In this document: in pieces, positions 10,567 to 52,167 of the stretch
How the letters are laid out: every line of letters begins with the position of its first letter
Position numbering within the stretch: position 1 is the stretch's first letter
Source of the DNA: a bacterium
GTDB lineage: Bacteria; Patescibacteriota; Minisyncoccia; Sungbacterales; SURF-37
Assembly (NCBI GenBank): GCA_030648055.1
Contig: JAUSHI010000002.1
Coordinates: 178-64,177 of the forward strand
Direction: 5' to 3'
Length of the DNA stretch: 64,000 nucleotides
Program-made: the position numbers and the translations under genes
Notes under the pieces: model-generated
The model's input: the letters and a program-made list of their open reading frames with translations, nothing else
The model's database searches: none
What the model was told of the DNA's origin: nothing

Positions 10567-11052
10567 ATGAACGATATCGGTATAAATCAGCTTTTAAAAT
10601 TTTTTGCGGTGATTACGATTATCGCGGTTTTACTTGTGGCCGGAGTGTATTTCTTTTTGAGGTGGTCGGTTAATATAGAGCCCGCACCCGATAATTCCGG
10701 TAAGGCCCCTGCTCCGGCTACTGGTGGTATGGAGGTTAAGATCAAAAGTCCGGCGGAATCCGAATTGACGCCTCAAATATTTTATGACGGGACCGGTTTC
10801 CAGCCGGCGCGTGTTACGCGCGACGGCAGCGGAAGTATCGGGTGTCTGGCGGTACTGATAAATCGTTCATTGCGTTCGCTCTCGCTGGGTGTCGGGCAGA
10901 ATGAGGCGAAGCAGGGTTATGGTACGGTAGCCGCGGGAGAAAAATTTATTTTTGACCCCCGTTTCGTCGGCATAACGGAGCTTAGGATGTATAACTTAGA
11001 TAATCCAAAACAGGAATTTTTTATTGAGCTCGGCCCTAATTGCAGAATATAA
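10567..11052 (+). CDS. membrane-anchored hypothetical protein
   Basis: 161 aa with an N-terminal TM helix. Confidence 0.6.
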   Translation: MNDIGINQLLKFFAVITIIAVLLVAGVYFFLRWSVNIEPAPDNSGKAPAPATGGMEVKIKSPAESELTPQIFYDGTGFQPARVTRDGSGSIGCLAVLINRSLRSLSLGVGQNEAKQGYGTVAAGEKFIFDPRFVGITELRMYNLDNPKQEFFIELGPNCRI

Positions 11053-46516: not shown

Positions 46517-47571
46517 GTGTCCCGAGGAACGCTTCTAAGGAAGATGTAAAACATGCTTATAGAAAGCTGGCGCATTTACATCACCCCGATAAAGCAGGTG
46601 GCAACGAGGCGAAGTTTAAAGAAATTAACGAGGCCTATCAGGTGCTGGGAGATGAAAAGAAGCGTTCACAGTACGACCAATTCGGGCGGGTGTTTGAGGG
46701 GGGCGGCGGAAGTCCTTTTGGCCAAGGCGGGTTTAGTTTTGGAGAAGAGTTTCGGGGTTTCGGCGATTTTGACTTTTCAGATATTTTTGAAGATGTTTTG
46801 GGCGGGATGGGTTTTGCCGGGGGGAAACGCGAGCCGCATTCAAAAAAAGGAAGAGATATACAAATTGATTTGGAAATTCCTTTTGAAGAAATGATTTTTG
46901 GTGGCAAGCACGAAGTATCGTTGCAGAAACTTGGGAAGTGCGAACGTTGCGGAGGGACAGGGGCAGAGGCCGGCTCAAAGATGGTTACGTGCAATACCTG
47001 CCATGGCTCCGGAAAGGTTGAGAAAATCCAACGGACTATTTTGGGTGTGTTTTCGCAAGTGAGCATTTGTTCAACCTGCAATGGTAAGGGCGAGGTGCCT
47101 GAAGTAACATGCAAAAATTGCGGAGGCAGGGGAGTTCTTCGCGCGGAGGATCGTATTGAAATTTTTGTGCCGGCCGGAGTTAATGGTAATGAGCTTCTGA
47201 AAGTTTCTGGAAAAGGCGAGGCGTCAGTTACTGGAGGCGTGCCGGGCGATCTTTTTGTGAAAATTCACGTGATGTCTTCAAAAATTTATAAAAGGCAGAG
47301 TAACGATGTAATTATGATGCTTTCGGTGAAATTTACCGACGCGGCTTTGGGGGCGAAGGTTGATTTGGGAACTCCTGACGGTAAAATCGTGATGAAAATT
47401 CCTGAAGGCACGGAGTCCGGAGATATTTTAAAAGTTCGCGGCAAGGGCGTTCCGCACCTTTCGGGGTACGGCAGGGGAGATCTTTTGATTGAGATTAAAG
47501 TTGAAACGCCCAAGAAACTTTCGCGCAAAGCAAAAGAGATGATTGAAAAATTAAAAGAAGAAGGAGTTTAA
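46489..47571 (+). CDS. dnaJ: chaperone DnaJ
   Basis: J domain with HPD (LAHLHHPDK), a G/F region, and four CxxCxGxG zinc motifs. Confidence 0.96.
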   Translation: MAKDYYKILGVPRNASKEDVKHAYRKLAHLHHPDKAGGNEAKFKEINEAYQVLGDEKKRSQYDQFGRVFEGGGGSPFGQGGFSFGEEFRGFGDFDFSDIFEDVLGGMGFAGGKREPHSKKGRDIQIDLEIPFEEMIFGGKHEVSLQKLGKCERCGGTGAEAGSKMVTCNTCHGSGKVEKIQRTILGVFSQVSICSTCNGKGEVPEVTCKNCGGRGVLRAEDRIEIFVPAGVNGNELLKVSGKGEASVTGGVPGDLFVKIHVMSSKIYKRQSNDVIMMLSVKFTDAALGAKVDLGTPDGKIVMKIPEGTESGDILKVRGKGVPHLSGYGRGDLLIEIKVETPKKLSRKAKEMIEKLKEEGV

Positions 47572-47650
47572 ACGTGGCTGTAAAATTCGCAAAACTCCGG
47601 CGTGTTTTGATAATTGCGCTTGCTATGGTTTTTTATTTCTTTGTAGTTTG

Positions 47651-47717
47651 TTCATTCCAACATTCTCTCTCTTTCGCGCGAGGCTTCGGACGGGCAAGGT
47701 AAGAATGTTGGAATGAA
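47651..47717. repeat. palindrome family copy with a 35-nt insertion at its centre
   Basis: The arms TTCATTCCAACATTCT (47651-66) and AGAATGTTGGAATGAA (47702-17) are separated by CTCTCTTTCGCGCGAGGCTTCGGACGGGCAAGGTA. Confidence 0.8.
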
Positions 47718-48093
47718 AAATGGGCGGGGCAGATGGTTGAGGGCGCTGTGCCGGATAACAAGAACACTCCGCAGTATTGCGGAGTGTTTTGAAATTCAGC
47801 ACCTTTCTGTCATTTCTTGTCTTATCGGATTTATTATTTTCGGCGCTTTGCTTTCCCTTTTTTTGCTTTTTTTGCCATTTTGATTTTTAGATTTAAATGA
47901 GCTAATTAATAAATTTATTCGGGAGCTATTTCCCTCGGCCTTTGGCATAAGTATACCATACTTTTATTGCAATTTTATTTTTTGCAACGCAATGTGTGGA
48001 TAACTTAAGGACGTTTGATTTTTTTCAAAAGCAAGTTATAATTGTTTTGCCCTCAGTTTTTGAAATAAAGATAAATTTTTTACGATTTTTTAC

Positions 48094-48214
48094 GCGCCCA
48101 TAGCTCAGTTGGGTGAGAATCCGTTTAAATAGGATTCTCACGGGCATTGCGAGCAGTCCCGACGTTTTGTCGGGACAGCACAGCACCATGCCCCGGAAGA
48201 GCAGCTCCCTTTTT
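48094..48214 (+). pseudogene. tRNA-Lys 5' fragment (positions 1 to 36) carrying an 86-nt hairpin-rich insertion in the D loop
   Basis: 48094-48112 equals 48536-48554, and 48199-48213 equals 48557-48571 of the intact tRNA-Lys. The insertion 48113-48198 contains GTGAGAATCC..GGATTCTCAC and GTCCCGAC-GTTTT-GTCGGGAC hairpins. Similarity stops after anticodon TTT. Confidence 0.7.
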
Positions 48215-48270
48215 CAGCCAGAGGCTGATCCGCCTTTGGCGGAAAGGAGAAGACCGATTTCAAAAAGCGT

Positions 48271-48513
48271 ATGCCCTATGTCTATGTTCTAAAAAGTTTG
48301 AAAAACGGAAAGCGTTATGTTGGTAGTAGTAATTTGGATCCTCAAGAACGGTTAAAGAAACATAATTCGGGATCAAATAAATTTACAAAAGGAAACAAAC
48401 CATTTATATTGATTTATCAAGAAGGATGCGCATCAGTTAGGAAAGCAAGGCAAAGAGAGAACTTTTTGAAATCCGGCGTTGGTAGGAATTTTCTTGATGA
48501 TATGTTTAAATAA
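48271..48513 (+). CDS. GIY-YIG nuclease domain protein (COG2827/YhbQ-like, 80 aa)
   Basis: PYVYVLKSLKNGKRYVGSSNLDPQERLKKHNSG....RENFLK is the GIY-(x)-YVG..R..H/N..E pattern. Confidence 0.8.
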   Translation: MPYVYVLKSLKNGKRYVGSSNLDPQERLKKHNSGSNKFTKGNKPFILIYQEGCASVRKARQRENFLKSGVGRNFLDDMFK

Positions 48514-48535
48514 TTTTACATTAAACTTTTATTAC

Positions 48536-48608
48536 GCGCCCATAGCTCAGTTGGTAGAGCAGCTCCCTTTTAAGGAGATGGTCGCAGGTTCGAATCCTGC
48601 TGGGCGCA
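48536..48608 (+). tRNA. tRNA-Lys (anticodon UUU), no encoded CCA
   Basis: GCGCCCA-TA-GCTC-AGTTGGTA-GAGC-A-GCTCC-CTTTTAA-GGAGA-TGGTC-GCAGG-TTCGAAT-CCTGC-TGGGCGC-A. Confidence 0.93.
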
Positions 48609-48681
48609 AACAGAGGCTGATCCGCCTTTGGCGGAAAGGAGACGCAAGTTCTGCGCCAGAGGCGCACTCGCCTCAGGCGAG

Positions 48682-48698
48682 GAATCCTGCTGGGCGCA
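48682..48698 (+). repeat. duplicated tRNA-Lys 3' end (17 nt)
   Basis: GAATCCTGCTGGGCGCA is identical to 48592-48608. A 32-nt box CAGAGGCTGATCCGCCTTTGGCGGAAAGGAGA is also duplicated (48219-48250 and 48611-48642). Confidence 0.8.
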
Positions 48699-48801
48699 TT
48701 GAGCAAAGCGAGAAAAGGAATTTTTATAGTGATTTTTTTTATGATGTTAGAATACAAACGCTAAATTTATAAAAATATCAGACGCTTATATAAGTTTTAA
48801 C

Positions 48802-48835
48802 GGGCCTATAGCATAGTGGCAGTGCAGCCGGTTTG
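48802..48835 (+). pseudogene. tRNA-Ala 5' fragment (positions 1-35) of a disrupted older copy
   Basis: GGGCCTATAGCATAGTGGCAGTGCAGCCGGTTTG is 30/34 identical to 49143-49176. Confidence 0.75.
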
Positions 48836-48857
48836 TCCCGATTTATACAAATTTAAA

Positions 48858-49103
48858 ATGTTTTATCTTTATATCTTAAAGTTGGTAAAATATGGGACAT
48901 ATTATATTGGAATTTGTAAGGATATCGGGAGTCGCTTATATCTGCACAATAATGGTAAAGTAAAATCAACAAAATTTAAGAGATCACGGGTACTTATTTG
49001 CACAAAAGAATTTAATATTTTATCTGAAGCTAGAAAATTAGAAATTAAATTGAAATCCATGAAGAAGCGTTCGTATTTAGAGAAGCTGATAAAACATTTC
49101 TAA
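48858..49103 (+). CDS. GIY-YIG nuclease domain protein (81 aa)
   Basis: MFYLYILKLVKYGTYYIGICKDIGSRLYLHNNG...EARKLEIKLK. The ATG at 48858 is preferred over the track GTG at 48816, which lies inside the tRNA fragment. Confidence 0.75.
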   Translation: MFYLYILKLVKYGTYYIGICKDIGSRLYLHNNGKVKSTKFKRSRVLICTKEFNILSEARKLEIKLKSMKKRSYLEKLIKHF

Positions 49104-49142
49104 AATTTGTATATAAATCGAGGATCCTCGTTAAATCGCGGT

Positions 49143-49213
49143 GGGCCCGTAGCATAGTGGTAGTGCATCCGGTTTGCATCCGGAGGGCGGGAGTTCGATT
49201 CTCCCCGGGTCCA
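49143..49213 (+). tRNA. tRNA-Ala (anticodon UGC) with G3:U70
   Basis: GGGCCCG-TA-GCAT-AGTGGTA-GTGC-A-TCCGG-TTTGCAT-CCGGA-GGGC-GGGAG-TTCGATT-CTCCC-CGGGTCC-A. Confidence 0.93.
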
Positions 49214-49240
49214 TTATGGGCCCACCACGATTTATCGGGA

Positions 49241-49265
49241 CATCCGGCGGGCTGGAGTTCCTCCG
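49241..49265 (+). pseudogene. tRNA-Ala 3' fragment (from anticodon position 36 into the T arm) of the disrupted copy
   Basis: CATCCGGCGGGCTGGAGTTCCTCC aligns with CATCCGGAGGGCGGGAGTTCGATTCTCC of the intact gene, with a 4-nt T-loop deletion. Its CCGGC pairs with GCCGG in the 48802 fragment. The acceptor 3' strand is missing. Confidence 0.7.
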
Positions 49266-49366
49266 ATTTTGTCTTCGCTTTGCGGAGTTACAAAATCGAG
49301 AGTCCTCGATGCGATTACCAAATTGAAAATTTGGTTCGCATCGGGAGATTCTCTCATGGTTCATTT

Positions 49367-49404
49367 CACACACAAAAACACCCGCTATGGGTGTTTTTGT
49401 GTGT
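49367..49404 (+). terminator. intrinsic terminator after the tRNA cluster
   Basis: CACACACAAAAACACCC-GCTA-TGGGTGTTTTTGTGTG. Confidence 0.7.
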
Positions 49405-49454
49405 ATAACTAAGTTTTGTTATAGATACTATTATACAATATACTAAGAGAAGTC

Positions 49455-49736
49455 ATGCCTCCGGCCGACAATTTAAAAATAAAATTTATTGCGCTTGCAA
49501 TTTTGGTCATCCTGCTTGTCGCGGCTGGTTTTTGGTATTGGTATCAAAAAAGAGCCAAAGTTCTAAAGGAAACAAGCCGGAGTGCTCAATTTTTTGGGAA
49601 AGTGCAGAATCCGATGGAAAAACTTCCCGAGACCAATCCTTTCAAGGTTCAAAGCAATCCTTTTTCAGCCGACGCTAATCCTTTGAGTAGCTCCAACCCC
49701 TTTAATGAGATCTATAAAAATCCGTTCGGTCAATAA
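49455..49736 (+). CDS. small membrane-anchored protein with NPF repeats
   Basis: 93 aa with an N-terminal TM helix. The C-terminus carries TNPF..SNPF..ANPL..SNPF..KNPF. Confidence 0.55.
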   Translation: MPPADNLKIKFIALAILVILLVAAGFWYWYQKRAKVLKETSRSAQFFGKVQNPMEKLPETNPFKVQSNPFSADANPLSSSNPFNEIYKNPFGQ

Positions 49737-49740
49737 ATTC

Positions 49741-52167
49741 ATGCCAGCCAATATTCAAAAATTACTCTTCAGAGGAATAATATTGTTTGGACTTTTTGCG
49801 GCGGCATTAATAGTGCAGGCGCAAGCGGCCCGCGTCTCTTCCATTACGCTTGAAAAAGGCAGTTCTTTCGGTCTTTTCATATTGACCGTTGCTGACCCCG
49901 ACGGCGTAAGGGAATTCTCACTGCAGCCGCCGGATAAATTCCCCTACGGCGGCGGGGTTAATTGTCCAAAGACATTTAAAAATAATAATGTAATTTTTTC
50001 TCTGGAAGATTTTACTCCGGAGATGACCGCGCATGTGCTTGATTGCAAGGACAATCGCGTTGAGTTCACCATTCTTCCTCCGAAAGACGGCGTTACTCGC
50101 GGTAGTGTAGTAGCCGCCCCTTCTTTGAAGCCAGTTTCAGTGCCAGCCAAACCGGCAGAGGAAGTTAAGAAGCCAGTTGGCGAAGATGAATTTGTTTTTC
50201 CAGTCGCGGAATTGGGAAATTGCAAGAGCGAAGACGATTGCAGAATTTATTGCGAAAGCCCGAGCCATTTCCGAGCCTGTTTAGCGTTTGCCGAAAAGTA
50301 TGACGCGATGAGTAAAGAAGAATTGACCGAGGCAAAGAAATTCGCCAAGGTAGTTGAAGACGGCGGTCCTGGCGGTTGCCGAACCGAGCTGGAATGCCAA
50401 GCGTATTGTGAAAATTCAGACCACTTTGAAGAGTGTGTTGCTTTTGCCGAAAAGTATGATTTGTTAAGTCCGGACGAATTGGCTAACGCCAAAAAGTTTC
50501 TTCCGCTTATTAAATCCGGCGAGATGCCGGGGGGCTGTAAAACCGAAAACGAATGCGAGGCGTATTGCTCGCAAAGCGCGAATTTGGAAGGATGCATTGC
50601 CTTTGCCGAGCGGCACGGCGTTATTTCTGCGAAAGAGCTGGCAGAAGCCAAGAAGTTTCTCCCACTCATTAAATCCGGCCAAACGCCGGGCGGCTGTGAT
50701 AGCAAATTAACATGTGAGACCTACTGCGCCCAGGATAAAAATATGGATGAATGTCTTGCGTTTGCCGAAGAAAATGACATATTGTCGCCCGAAGAACTCC
50801 AAATGGCAAAAAAAATGCTGCCTTTAATGAAGAGCGGCGAAACGCCTGGCGCTTGTAAGAGCCGCGCCTCGTGCGAAGAATATTGCGCAATAGGCATCAA
50901 TATTGATGAGTGTCTTTCTTTCGCGGAAAAACAGGGCCTTATGACCCCCGAAGAACTGGAAGAAGTTAAAAAAATTCTTCCGTTTATGAAATCCGGCGAA
51001 CTACCCGGAGGGTGCACATCAAAAGAGGGCTGTGAGGCGTATTGCGAAGAAGACGACAATCTTGATGAGTGCTTGGCTTTCGCTGAAAAAGCAGGGCTTA
51101 TCTCGCCGGAAGAATTGGAAATAGCCAAAAAAACAGGGGGCAAGGGCCCGGGTGATTGTCGCGGGAGAGCGTGCGCAACATTTTGCGAAGACCCCGATAA
51201 TTTTATTATTTGCCGTGAATGGGCAGAAAAAAATGGTTTTACTGACGAGCTTTCCGGTACTTTAAGCAAAGGCGGGTTTACGGGTGGTCCGGGAGGATGC
51301 AAAACTGTTGAAGAATGCCAGGCATTTTGTCAGGAGAACCCGGATAAATGCCCTGGCCCGGGAAAACAAGGCCAGCATTGTTGCATTTCCCCAATTCCGG
51401 AATTAGAGGATAATTTACCGGGTTGTATTAAGTATTGCCAGGGGAATCCGGAAAATTGTCGAAAAGCAGAAGAAGCGTGGTGCCTGGATAATCCGGAATA
51501 TTGTCCTGATGGAAAGTTTGTTCCGCAGTGTGGTAATGGCGGCTCGGGTGGCGACTCCGGAGGAGGCCCAGGCGGATGCAAATCCCCAGAGGAATGCCAA
51601 GCTTATTGTCAGGAACATCCGGCAGAATGCGGCATCGGTGGAGGCGGGGGTGCCGGTGGTGGTCCTTCAAGAGGTGGGGGTGGACCGCCGCCAAACTGCT
51701 CCTTTGAGGAATTAAATCCTGTCTGCGCAGCAGTGAGTCCAGGTAAACATCACACTTTTAATAACGAATGCTTTGCGAAAGCTTTTGGAGCCACAAACCT
51801 GCGGCCGGGAGTCTGCCCCGGAGATGTACCCTGTTCGACGGTTCGTGATCCGGTCTGTGCTGTTAAAAGCGGAGCCACTAGGAGCTATTTCAATGGGTGT
51901 GCCGCCGAAGGAGACGACGCGGGAATTCTCTATGCGGGTGAGTGTAAAACCGATGGACCGCTACCATCCGTGGTGCCTCAGTTCCCAACATCAGGAGGAC
52001 AACCACCCACCATTCCTACCCCCGCACAAATCCAGCAACAAATAGAACAGCAAATTCAACAACAAGTTGATTGTTCTCTTTTCGCTTCCGTGCCGGAATG
52101 TTCTTTTGCGGGTCCAGAAGGTTCGCAAAACTACAACCACTGCAAACAGTGTTATCCGGATAAATAA
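49741..52167 (+). CDS. secreted Cys-rich repeat protein with two C-terminal Kazal-like modules
   Basis: Signal peptide. 7 full and 2 truncated repeats of about 48 aa (PGGC-x5-C-x2-YC-x7-C-x2-FAEK..S.EEL..AKK). The Kazal-like modules are C-x7-PVC-x13-C-x14-C, twice. Gly-rich and Gln-rich tails follow. Confidence 0.8.
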   Translation: MPANIQKLLFRGIILFGLFAAALIVQAQAARVSSITLEKGSSFGLFILTVADPDGVREFSLQPPDKFPYGGGVNCPKTFKNNNVIFSLEDFTPEMTAHVLDCKDNRVEFTILPPKDGVTRGSVVAAPSLKPVSVPAKPAEEVKKPVGEDEFVFPVAELGNCKSEDDCRIYCESPSHFRACLAFAEKYDAMSKEELTEAKKFAKVVEDGGPGGCRTELECQAYCENSDHFEECVAFAEKYDLLSPDELANAKKFLPLIKSGEMPGGCKTENECEAYCSQSANLEGCIAFAERHGVISAKELAEAKKFLPLIKSGQTPGGCDSKLTCETYCAQDKNMDECLAFAEENDILSPEELQMAKKMLPLMKSGETPGACKSRASCEEYCAIGINIDECLSFAEKQGLMTPEELEEVKKILPFMKSGELPGGCTSKEGCEAYCEEDDNLDECLAFAEKAGLISPEELEIAKKTGGKGPGDCRGRACATFCEDPDNFIICREWAEKNGFTDELSGTLSKGGFTGGPGGCKTVEECQAFCQENPDKCPGPGKQGQHCCISPIPELEDNLPGCIKYCQGNPENCRKAEEAWCLDNPEYCPDGKFVPQCGNGGSGGDSGGGPGGCKSPEECQAYCQEHPAECGIGGGGGAGGGPSRGGGGPPPNCSFEELNPVCAAVSPGKHHTFNNECFAKAFGATNLRPGVCPGDVPCSTVRDPVCAVKSGATRSYFNGCAAEGDDAGILYAGECKTDGPLPSVVPQFPTSGGQPPTIPTPAQIQQQIEQQIQQQVDCSLFASVPECSFAGPEGSQNYNHCKQCYPDK

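Follow-up and report, generated by a model that had tools for sequence, protein, structure and literature searches.

Known systems

In fungal mitochondria, elements known as mORFs (Allomyces macrogynus atp6; Glomus atp6, atp9, cox2, and nad3) consist of a free-standing gene for an endonuclease, which is of the GIY-YIG type in atp9 and otherwise of the LAGLIDADG type, and this gene travels with a foreign copy of part of its host gene (PMC3630166). The foreign gene end, i.e., the C-terminal part, functionally replaces the native one, which stays nearby as an unexpressed remnant of differing sequence (PMC3630166). Here, we analyse a locus in a 64,000-nt stretch of a Patescibacteria (candidate phyla radiation, CPR) genome (GCA_030648055.1, contig JAUSHI010000002.1; "the window" always means this whole stretch), where a complete but broken second tRNA-Lys (48094-48698) encloses a GIY-YIG open reading frame (ORF) and an intact tRNA-Lys. 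On balance, we favour the reading that this is a homing-type selfish cassette which sits in tRNA genes and carries a replacement tRNA, and we have low confidence in the molecular details proposed for it below.

The mORFs would be the closest analogue of this cassette, in function and not by homology. The cassette differs from them in residing in a bacterial chromosome, in targeting a tRNA gene, and in having a whole tRNA or its 5′ part as cargo. It also differs in encoding a minimal 80-aa nuclease of the UPF0213 type, in being bounded by hairpin modules (either inverted ends or DH30, our name for a conserved 30-nt double hairpin), and in having native fragments on both sides, i.e., a nested layout.

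SegB of phage T4 is a free-standing GIY-YIG homing endonuclease encoded in a tRNA gene cluster; it cuts the tRNA-region DNA of a related genome that lacks the gene, and the region is preferentially inherited by co-conversion (PMC2330249). The cassette is like SegB in that a GIY-YIG gene lies among tRNA genes, but segB is a phage gene with no nested or split tRNA, no spare tRNA, and no hairpin module. SegB is also a larger enzyme with a DNA-binding part.

Within the Patescibacteria, tRNA genes contain group I introns at position 35/36, some of which carry homing endonuclease genes of the HNH, PD-(D/E)XK, and LAGLIDADG types, not GIY-YIG (PMC13011429). These introns share their phylum with the cassettes, and their site is both the insertion position of the Ala-type cassette and the end of the Asn-type fragment described below. 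Several GIY-YIG cassettes also lie directly upstream of tRNA-Asn genes that bear a group I intron. The difference is in how the gene is rescued: by splicing in the introns, and by a spare tRNA in the cassettes, which have no ribozyme.

Short, dispersed, and apparently mobile two-hairpin elements, tied to endonuclease ORFs or to a cognate nuclease gene that has the repeats on either side, are known as well. These are the double-hairpin elements of Allomyces mitochondrial DNA, reportedly described by Paquin, Laforest and Lang in 2000, and the repetitive extragenic palindromic (REP) and REPIN sequences with their REP-associated tyrosine transposase (RAYT). DH30 appears to differ from them in having its own sequence (GCC..GGC cores and 3-nt loops, first purine then pyrimidine) and a GIY-YIG protein, not an HUH protein, as candidate partner.

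The UPF0213 and bacterial Slx1-like proteins are stand-alone minimal GIY-YIG domains of 80-100 aa (PDB 1ZG2 BH0048, 1YWL EF2693; PMC1564403), and the literature searched for the UPF0213 family describes no genomic role or tRNA linkage. Nor did we find a description of a GIY-YIG/UPF0213 link to tRNA genes, or of the cassette, in a search that left most subscription-journal papers uncovered, so a prior description is possible.

The tRNA-Lys locus

All features of the tRNA-Lys locus, and of the tRNA-Ala locus which adjoins it, are on the plus strand. We refer to the broken tRNA as the outer copy and to the intact tRNA within it as the inner copy. An initial annotation of the window had recognised the intact tRNA-Lys, the 80-aa GIY-YIG ORF, and a 17-nt repeat of the tRNA 3′ end (48682-48698), and ARAGORN, Rfam, Pfam, and a repeat search found all three in place. 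The ORF (48271-48513) matches Pfam PF01541 with E=3.3e-15. The inner tRNA-Lys(UUU) at 48536-48608, called by ARAGORN and scoring 74.9 bits in Rfam, is the functional copy and is carried by the cassette.

The outer copy is preceded, by about 50 nt, by a promoter-like site (TTGATT-16-TATAAT, 48015-48042), identified by consensus match only (10/12). It is probably the original tRNA promoter and would now drive the fragment, ORF, and tRNA as a single transcript. Positions 1-19 of the outer tRNA (48094-48112), which comprise the 5′ strand of the acceptor stem, the 5′ strand of the D stem, and the start of the D loop, are identical to the inner tRNA at 19/19 bases. They are followed by a D-loop insert of 84-86 nt (48113-48196). 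The initial annotation had described this insert (as 48113-48198) as two strong hairpins, and a fold check agreed (-47.5 kcal/mol, z=-8.6). It carries GTCCCGAC-GTTTT-GTCGGGAC, which is similar to the joined ends of the Ala-type element, and no second copy of it occurred in any of the DNA fetched for comparison (220 loci, designated by L numbers).

Positions 20-36 (AAGAGCAGCTCCCTTTT, 48197-48213), located by repeat search and alignment, have one mismatch to the inner copy (T20A). The first DH30 copy (TCAGCC-AGA-GGCTGA + TCCGCC-TTT-GGCGGA, 48214-48243), found by a hairpin scan and in relatives, is a precise anticodon-loop insertion at 36/37, where a DH30 is present in every Lys-clade relative examined. 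Read in the tRNA register, the next bases are positions 37-43 (AAGGAGA, 48244-48250), with which the upstream outer fragment ends; in relatives it extends to position 43-49. The initial annotation was therefore right that the 5′ fragment reproduces positions 1-36 (1-19 exactly, 20-36 with one mismatch) but wrong that it ends at the anticodon, as positions 37-43 follow the 30-nt hairpin. Likewise, the 32-nt box it reported does occur in two identical copies (48219-48250 and 48611-48642), but it is actually part of DH30 plus tRNA positions 37-43.

Downstream of the inner tRNA, where the initial annotation saw nothing of the outer tRNA but a duplicated 3′ end, the outer copy in fact resumes. The second DH30 (48611-48635), recognised by a repeat search against relatives, is 5′-truncated: TCAGC, the first 5 nt of hairpin 1, is gone. 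In relatives, the second DH30 is preceded by the trailer stem and by tRNA positions 25-36, both of which the window has lost by deletion. When the reassembled outer copy is aligned to the inner one, 48636-48651 resolves into positions 37-43 (AAGGAGA, 48636-48642), a single variable-loop base (C), and GCAAG-TTC (48644-48651). The T-stem 5′ strand GCAAG has one mismatch, and four variable-loop bases are missing. After TTC, a third DH30 (variant TGCGCC-AGA-GGCGCA + CTCGCC-TCA-GGCGAG, 48652-48681; hairpin scan) occupies the T loop. Its insertion is precise and without target duplication, and L068 contains the identical stem variant. The last 17 nt (48682-48698), i.e., the 3′ part of the T loop, the 3′ strands of the T stem and acceptor stem, and the discriminator, match the inner tRNA at 17/17 bases.

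With all inserts removed, the outer tRNA-Lys differs from the inner by T20A, the 4-nt variable-loop deletion, and the T-stem mismatch. Because those four bases are missing and ARAGORN makes no tRNA call on the reassembled sequence, we regard the outer tRNA-Lys as a pseudogene. The ORF is intact, while the outer copy has hairpin inserts in three loops (D, anticodon, and T), the 4-nt deletion, and a truncated second DH30. The leader/trailer stem around the inner tRNA has been lost from this copy and is retained in the window's Ala copy. We consider the window's Lys region to be an old, decayed copy of the cassette.

The 5′ leader of the ORF contains a 12-nt segment (GATTTCAAAAAG, 48256-48267) that is a perfect complement of the coding sequence for the conserved FLKS motif (48462-48473). 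This could be a regulatory pairing or chance, and it is absent from the relatives that were read.

Recurrence in other genomes

A scan over one genome per species yielded 375 relatives; locus counts out of 80 refer to the best 80 of the 375, in reference genomes. A tRNA gene is within 300 nt of the ORF in 65/80 loci, nearly always 0-40 nt downstream and on the same strand, compared with a rough estimate of 4% for a random gene in a genome of approximately 1 Mb. In nearly every locus with a downstream tRNA, a 5′ fragment of the cognate tRNA is found 40-100 nt upstream of the ORF, with a median local-alignment score of 32 for the upstream fragment versus 16 in control windows. GIY-YIG ORFs are thus overwhelmingly enriched beside tRNA genes and fragments, an enrichment that the initial annotation had proposed as a test. 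In the Lys clade, the 3′ half of the tRNA also occurs approximately 60 nt downstream of the intact tRNA, frequently with perfect identity, and a metagenome scan added approximately 30 further Lys-type cassettes of identical layout.

Overall, the layout is shared by over 100 independent assemblies, which come from several projects and phyla, and shuffles of the window contain approximately zero double hairpins of the DH30 kind. Both chance and assembly artefact are therefore excluded as its cause, and the suggestion in the initial annotation that two nested loci imply a mechanism is upheld, for a pattern of wider occurrence than it had supposed.

The closest relatives are all upstream of tRNA-Lys, and other clades precede tRNA Asn, Val, Ile, Ala, Ser, Gln, Pro, Phe, His, Met, or Tyr. 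In a rough tree, protein clades follow tRNA identity. Where ARAGORN calls no tRNA after the ORF, the downstream gene is mostly a tRNA-Asn split by a group I intron at 35/36. Cassettes sit in conserved tRNA clusters (e.g., Lys then Ala, or Leu(GAG) then Val(UAC)) and are therefore in place at the native locus. The window's own tRNA-Asn is cassette-free, and the tRNA-Asn genes of many relatives carry a cassette.

The inner tRNA of the Lys clade lies inside a leader/trailer stem whose sequence varies while its pairing is kept (median 11 pairs versus 4 in controls). This conservation of pairing despite sequence change suggests an RNA-processing signal that would free the tRNA from the ORF transcript.

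Two further observations concern the downstream tRNA. In seven loci (L021, L027, L031, L064, L069, L075, and L077), the inner tRNA is a tRNA-Asn with a group I intron at 35/36, and the outer 5′ Asn fragment ends exactly at 35, the intron insertion site. In L060 (2501-3102), the GIY-YIG ORF runs into the tRNA and its stop codon is the TAG of tRNA positions 8-10, so RNase P processing would strip the stop from the mRNA; the tRNA begins at or inside the last bases of the ORF match in other loci too.

Insertion, foreign cargo, and decay

When the sequence from the first DH30 through the last is deleted in silico, an ARAGORN-callable tRNA-Lys results in L001, L114, L127, and L140. Automated comparison of outer and inner acceptor stems was noisy, so our conclusions on alleles rest on loci read by eye. 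In L005, L007, and L219, the outer 5′ piece can pair with the outer 3′ piece (through the acceptor strands in L005 and L007), and both differ from the inner tRNA by compensatory changes. The outer 5′ piece alone differs from the inner tRNA in L003 and L022, and L059 is a mix of three tRNA-Ile alleles. The outer and inner tRNAs can be different alleles, and the tRNA cargo of the cassette is foreign.

All expected stages of a life cycle are seen. Well-preserved nested cassettes are present in L114, L127, L140, and L219. Tandem repeats of fragment, DH30, and ORF were read directly in L060 and L143, and L051 and L063 have the corresponding DH30 spacing. L125 has a truncated ORF, and L151 is an ORF-less relic that fits a deletion between the outer and inner 5′ halves. 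The window, L001-L003, L007, and L032 are decayed copies in which the outer fragments have accumulated hairpin inserts.

These results can be compared with what is expected of known element types. As for a free-standing homing gene, the site is fixed (cognate tRNA loci) and there is presence/absence polymorphism (tRNA-Asn, and the relics in L002 and L005). Co-conversion is found in the Ala-type family, while the Lys type shows allele mosaicism only. As for a gene-replacing element of the mORF type, there are foreign copies (L005, L007, L219, and L059) and the window's outer copies are degenerate, a functional analogy and not a homology.

A separate type of repeat lies downstream of some Lys cassettes (L107 1-230, L134 1-330, and L127 5176-5380), where units of trailer, anticodon arm with DH30, and tRNA-Lys 3′ half are arranged in tandem with a period of 102-105 nt.

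The GIY-YIG protein

The Lys ORF scores 56.6 bits against PF01541 (cut-off 22.6), and the Ala ORF is likewise above the cut-off. Seven residues (Y5, Y16, G18, R27, H31, N32, and E63) are invariant over 21 family sequences, and all catalytic-motif residues are present. The best matches with solved structures are 1ZG2 (BH0048, E=7.5e-12) and 1YWL (EF2693, E=5.6e-11), with a weak match to SLX1 (E=4e-4). The cassette protein is accordingly of the UPF0213/Slx1-like type, a lone minimal GIY-YIG domain without any accessory domain. Proteins of the I-TevI type have an N-terminal GIY-YIG domain, a linker, and a C-terminal DNA-binding domain, approximately 245 aa in all. The Lys ORF is not of this type, having 80 aa and scoring 21.4 bits against NCBIfam grpIintron_endo (cut-off 56).

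Its nearest relatives, at 56-74% identity, are from Patescibacteria (Giovannonibacteria, Zambryskibacteria, and others) and also from Omnitrophota. An exact-sequence look-up of the Lys ORF returned no record, but a homology search does list an identical protein from a metagenome-assembled genome at NCBI.

The DH30 double hairpin

DH30 consists of two 15-nt hairpins with the consensus TC[CA]GCC-RRA-GGC[GT]GA + YC[CA]GCC-YYN-GGC[GT]GR. It is located 30-120 nt upstream of the ORF in 60/80 loci, always in the same orientation (first loop purine-rich, second pyrimidine-rich). The GCC/GGC cores are invariant, and where the three outer stem pairs change, both sides change and stay complementary; however, the set had been selected by a hairpin filter, which makes the pairing percentage partly circular. 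In certain clades, other GC-rich hairpins take the place of DH30.

The insertion site depends on the clade: the Lys clade has DH30 in the anticodon loop (36/37), most Ile, Val, and Ala clades have it in the D loop (17/18), and many Asn loci have it at 29/30, which is inside the anticodon stem. Regardless of the site, the distance from DH30 to the end of the outer 5′ fragment is always 3-17 nt. Extra copies are found in the T loops of outer tRNAs (the window at 48652-48681, L012, L025, and L052), each precise and without target duplication.

DH30 also occurs outside cassettes, in phage contigs and in many metagenome contigs, and so counts as an independent dispersed element. It may be akin to REP, REPIN, or MITE (miniature inverted-repeat transposable element) sequences; the features seen in this comparison were the dispersed copies, the precise 30-nt insertions, and the position flanking a GIY-YIG gene in 60/80 loci, and mobilisation by the GIY-YIG protein is putative. 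In viral DNA, the pattern was found in just 15 stretches, none with a nearby tRNA or GIY-YIG gene, and a phage origin was rejected on this ground. Several of the phage copies are followed immediately, in the same orientation, by a ribosome-binding site and a start codon. Within the cassette, DH30 could be a binding or cleavage site for the nuclease, a module that stabilises or processes the 5′ leader, or a passenger mini-element.

We also considered whether DH30 is a simple intron of intact tRNAs and rejected this, as deleting DH30 alone gave a full tRNA at 1/~120 sites (L014, beside an intact copy). Among 80 metagenome loci, none had a tRNA-Lys with both halves, one DH30, and no ORF.

Some observations concern DH30 away from tRNA genes. 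Such copies (L099, L102, L105, L118, L158, L163, and other metagenome loci) are often within short runs of NACTTT(T), e.g., GACTTTT-DH30-GACTTTTGACTTTT, where only the right-hand repeats are informative because the metagenome search pattern imposed CTTTT on the left flank. An Ignavibacteriales contig (L063, 100-432 and 1462-2469) has two sets of four DH30 copies, each set being a different variant: one set has a 101-nt period, and the other, with a 326-nt period, leads up to the GIY-YIG ORF. In the window, a generic double-hairpin scan found adjacent 15-nt palindromic hairpins at 10793-10822 (CCGGTTTCCAGCCGG CGCGTGTTACGCGCG), which are not of the DH30 type.

The tRNA-Ala locus and the Ala-type family

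The adjoining tRNA-Ala locus is nested in the same way, as the initial annotation had noticed: an ORF and an intact tRNA-Ala lie inside an outer tRNA-Ala. It contains a second, distantly related cassette of the same principle, and the Lys and Ala GIY-YIG proteins, when aligned (80-81 aa), share just 37% identity. Positions 1-35 of the outer tRNA-Ala (48802-48835), which end in TTTG, are 88% identical to the inner copy. The 405-nt cassette (48836-49240) is inserted at TTTG^CAT (35/36) and has 7-nt inverted ends (TCCCGAT / ATCGGGA). Within it are the GIY-YIG ORF (48858-49103; PF01541, E=1.3e-9, 38.7 bits), a hairpin (49115-49130), and the inner intact tRNA-Ala(UGC) (49143-49213; ARAGORN and Rfam), which is enclosed by a leader/trailer stem (49129-49151 paired with 49215-49237).

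The outer tRNA-Ala resumes with positions 36-56 (49241-49260), has an 86-nt insert in its T loop (49261-49346; fold z=-7.7), and ends with its last 17 nt (49347-49363; repeat search). The T-loop insert is an ORF-less derivative of the Ala-type element. Neither 86-nt insert (Lys D loop or Ala T loop) has a repeat in the window or the 220 fetched loci. Joined together, the outer Ala pieces are still called as tRNA-Ala but have stem mismatches, including in the acceptor stem. A perfect 16-bp hairpin (49368-49404; inverted-repeat search) closes the Lys-Ala cluster. It is probably a terminator, although a terminator scan made no call there. Because the promoter-like site precedes the cluster and this hairpin follows it, the cluster is probably one transcription unit.

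Four relatives of the Ala type were found in all (L216, L217, L219, and L220), each with the TCCCGAT...ATCGGGA ends. In L219 and L220, the element contains a tRNA, and the outer tRNA-Ala is perfect apart from the single insert at TTTG^CAT (35/36); the tRNA-Ala in the insert is a different allele. Deleting TCCCGAT..ATCGGGA from L219 in silico restores the tRNA-Ala.

In L216 and L217, which are from one Nomurabacteria genome (GCA_026396065.1), two paralogous genes are each interrupted close to their start, at AATTG^CAAA, by a cargo-less element of approximately 313 nt, without a tRNA. Identity between the paralogs is 50-60% but reaches 100% over the 26 nt upstream of the element and the approximately 40 nt downstream of it. 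This is a co-conversion tract, of the kind that homing classically leaves behind. Of all the evidence for mobility, that from the Ala-type family is the clearest. The host genes encode Cys-rich paralogs of approximately 570 aa with CxxC motifs; the element interrupts the first 9 codons, and the gene calls resume at an internal Met, 12 codons downstream.

In L002 and L005, the syntenic tRNA-Ala retains an ORF-less Ala relic only. Between the tRNA-Lys cassette and tRNA-Ala of these loci are toxin-antitoxin-like pairs (L002 2940-3440, L005 2780-3460), which include an 87-aa RelE/ParE-like ORF in L002 and a 125-aa MazF/PemK-like ORF in L005, named by eye from the translations.

Proposed mechanism and alternatives

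Well-preserved Lys cassettes have the order DH30, short leader, 80-aa GIY-YIG gene, spare tRNA-Lys in a leader/trailer stem, and second DH30. Under the homing reading, insertion of the cassette at 36/37 would split and inactivate the resident tRNA-Lys, and the cassette tRNA would take over. The spare tRNA would substitute for the broken gene, so insertion into an essential, usually single-copy gene would be survivable. The resident tRNA promoter would transcribe the fragment, nuclease gene, and spare tRNA together, and with this shared transcript the host would be unable to silence the nuclease gene without losing the tRNA. The GIY-YIG protein may make the initiating break in cassette-free alleles or in DNA beside DH30, and repair of the break would copy the cassette in (homing), with co-conversion of the flanking tRNA sequence. 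Afterwards, direct repeats would delete parts of the cassette, the nuclease gene would decay, and the orphaned outer fragments would gather hairpin mini-elements. As a speculation, the nuclease might bind DH30 and cut a few bases downstream, with the left end priming on the donor outer fragment and the right end annealing to the donor intact tRNA; this model would fit the constant distance of 3-17 nt between DH30 and the fragment end.

Several points weigh against homing. At only 80 aa, and lacking a DNA-binding domain, the protein is unlike the GIY-YIG homing enzymes that are known, and its closest solved relatives are UPF0213 proteins, a family without known function. The nuclease activity, the nuclease target, and the role of DH30 are all predicted from sequence. 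Close relatives of the window organism yielded no cassette-free allele. In Lys-type cassettes, the anticodon arm and DH30, together approximately 50 nt, are present at each of the two ends, a duplication for which simple homing does not account; a fixed staggered cut was considered as the source of this duplicated arm and rejected because the boundaries vary (positions 20-31 and 43-49). If the target were the intact tRNA, the cassette's own tRNA would be exposed to cleavage, and in the window the outer copy, where preserved, does not differ from the inner. Finally, DH30 is also found far from tRNA or GIY-YIG genes, in phage and metagenome contigs, so its link to the nuclease may be indirect.

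Some of these same observations would suit a REP/RAYT-like hairpin system, in which DH30 would be a mobile palindrome, the GIY-YIG protein its structure-specific nuclease, and the tRNA duplications by-products of breaks or slippage; the ORF would lie near tRNAs for their promoters, and clean tRNA genes would not be invaded by homing. The dispersal of DH30 in non-tRNA contexts and in phage contigs without a nearby GIY-YIG gene speaks for such a system, as do its precise entry into outer-copy loops without target duplication and the constant spacing to the fragment end, which suggests coupling to the breakpoint. SLX1, a structure-specific nuclease, is among the solved relatives, and the outer stem positions of DH30 vary as complementary pairs while its core and loop polarity are fixed, but this last argument is weakened by the partial circularity of the hairpin-filtered set. 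We nevertheless consider a hairpin system unlikely, because the Ala type has the same cassette logic with non-DH30 ends and clear co-conversion tracts, the inner tRNA can be a foreign allele, and other hairpins replace DH30 in some clades. A guide-RNA-like scheme, analogous to transposon-encoded RNA-guided nucleases, would instead have the transcribed tRNA 5′ fragment act as guide and DH30 as protein-binding scaffold, steering the nuclease to tRNA genes. The constant order of target-derived segment, structured hairpins, and nuclease gene would suit it, and in several loci the outer fragment matches an allele other than the cassette's own tRNA. However, the fragment does not differ from the inner tRNA in many loci, where the cassette would thus be its own target, and both the length of the fragment and the position of DH30 range widely (8 to 47 nt). 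A hairpin scaffold of this sort is missing from the Ala-type element and, to our knowledge, an 80-aa single-domain protein is far below the size of any known RNA-guided nuclease, which makes this scheme highly improbable.

It is very unlikely that the outer tRNA-Lys is functional, with its inserts (ORF and inner tRNA included) being introns that a protein-dependent pathway removes from the transcript, perhaps with the GIY-YIG protein as RNA endonuclease. Such introns would explain why the inserts are mostly within tRNA loops and why the outer exons of well-preserved relatives form a perfect tRNA; group I introns are moreover proven to occupy 35/36 in Patescibacteria tRNAs (PMC13011429), and the covarying leader/trailer stem points to selection on RNA structure. 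They would not explain the variable-loop deletion and T-stem mismatch that remain in the window's outer tRNA-Lys after insert removal, the acceptor-stem mismatches of the outer tRNA-Ala, the Asn-type DH30 inside the anticodon stem, or the outer pieces that may derive from different, non-pairing alleles (L003, L022, and L059). An intact copy is always present, and the cargo-less copies interrupt protein-coding genes. No ribozyme family matched even at E<=10, and the non-coding sequence is too short for a ribozyme: an Rfam scan of 47500-49600 at that threshold gave the two tRNAs plus noise, which rules out a group I intron or other ribozyme at the locus. By inspection, without a formal motif search, no bulge-helix-bulge (3-nt bulge / 4-bp helix / 3-nt bulge) was seen at the junctions, and the organism is bacterial. 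Integrating elements commonly leave partial tRNA copies beside tRNA genes, so ordinary causes also deserve consideration, i.e., an integrase-type element with att duplication, tandem duplication with decay, or an assembly artefact. We give these almost no weight. There is no integrase, the insert is approximately 0.45 kb with the GIY-YIG gene as its sole ORF, duplication has affected 5′ parts and whole arms rather than only the 3′ end, and the detailed layout recurs across assemblies, projects, and phyla as described above. An integrase-type element in particular would be expected to span multiple kb with 3′ att repeats, and we ruled it out.

We also put forward, tentatively, a broader claim than homing at this locus: that these cassettes could be autonomous mobile elements of a previously unrecognised class, among the smallest (0.3-0.45 kb). 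Their sole protein, the 80-aa GIY-YIG, would act on the element's own terminal hairpins (DH30 or TCCCGAT/ATCGGGA), and the elements would carry a spare tRNA and spawn ORF-less hairpin mini-elements that spread in CPR bacteria, Omnitrophota, and their phages.

If the homing reading is true, a large and so far uncharacterised family of minimal GIY-YIG (UPF0213-like) proteins would gain a biological role. The reading would also show a way for a selfish element to enter the essential single-copy tRNA genes of highly reduced genomes, using a replacement tRNA and the tRNA promoter, and the very small site- or structure-specific nuclease would be of practical interest. The cassettes account for puzzling tRNA fragments, and for seemingly duplicated or missing tRNA genes, in annotations of uncultured bacteria. 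They also suggest a route for horizontal exchange of tRNA alleles among lineages, and with them a conserved 30-nt double hairpin common to several phyla and phages is recognised.

Other features of the window

Outside the cassettes, a long inverted repeat lies downstream of a dnaJ-like gene (47647-47720) and gave only weak, miRNA-like noise matches in Rfam. An 11-bp terminator-like hairpin is at 47763-47788 on the minus strand, also outside the tRNA cassettes. At 49705-52167, an 820-aa ORF contains many tandem Cys-rich units of approximately 50 aa (...PGGC.TE.EC.AYC....ECLAFAEK..L.SPEELAEAKKF...) and has a Gly/Pro/Gln-rich tail.

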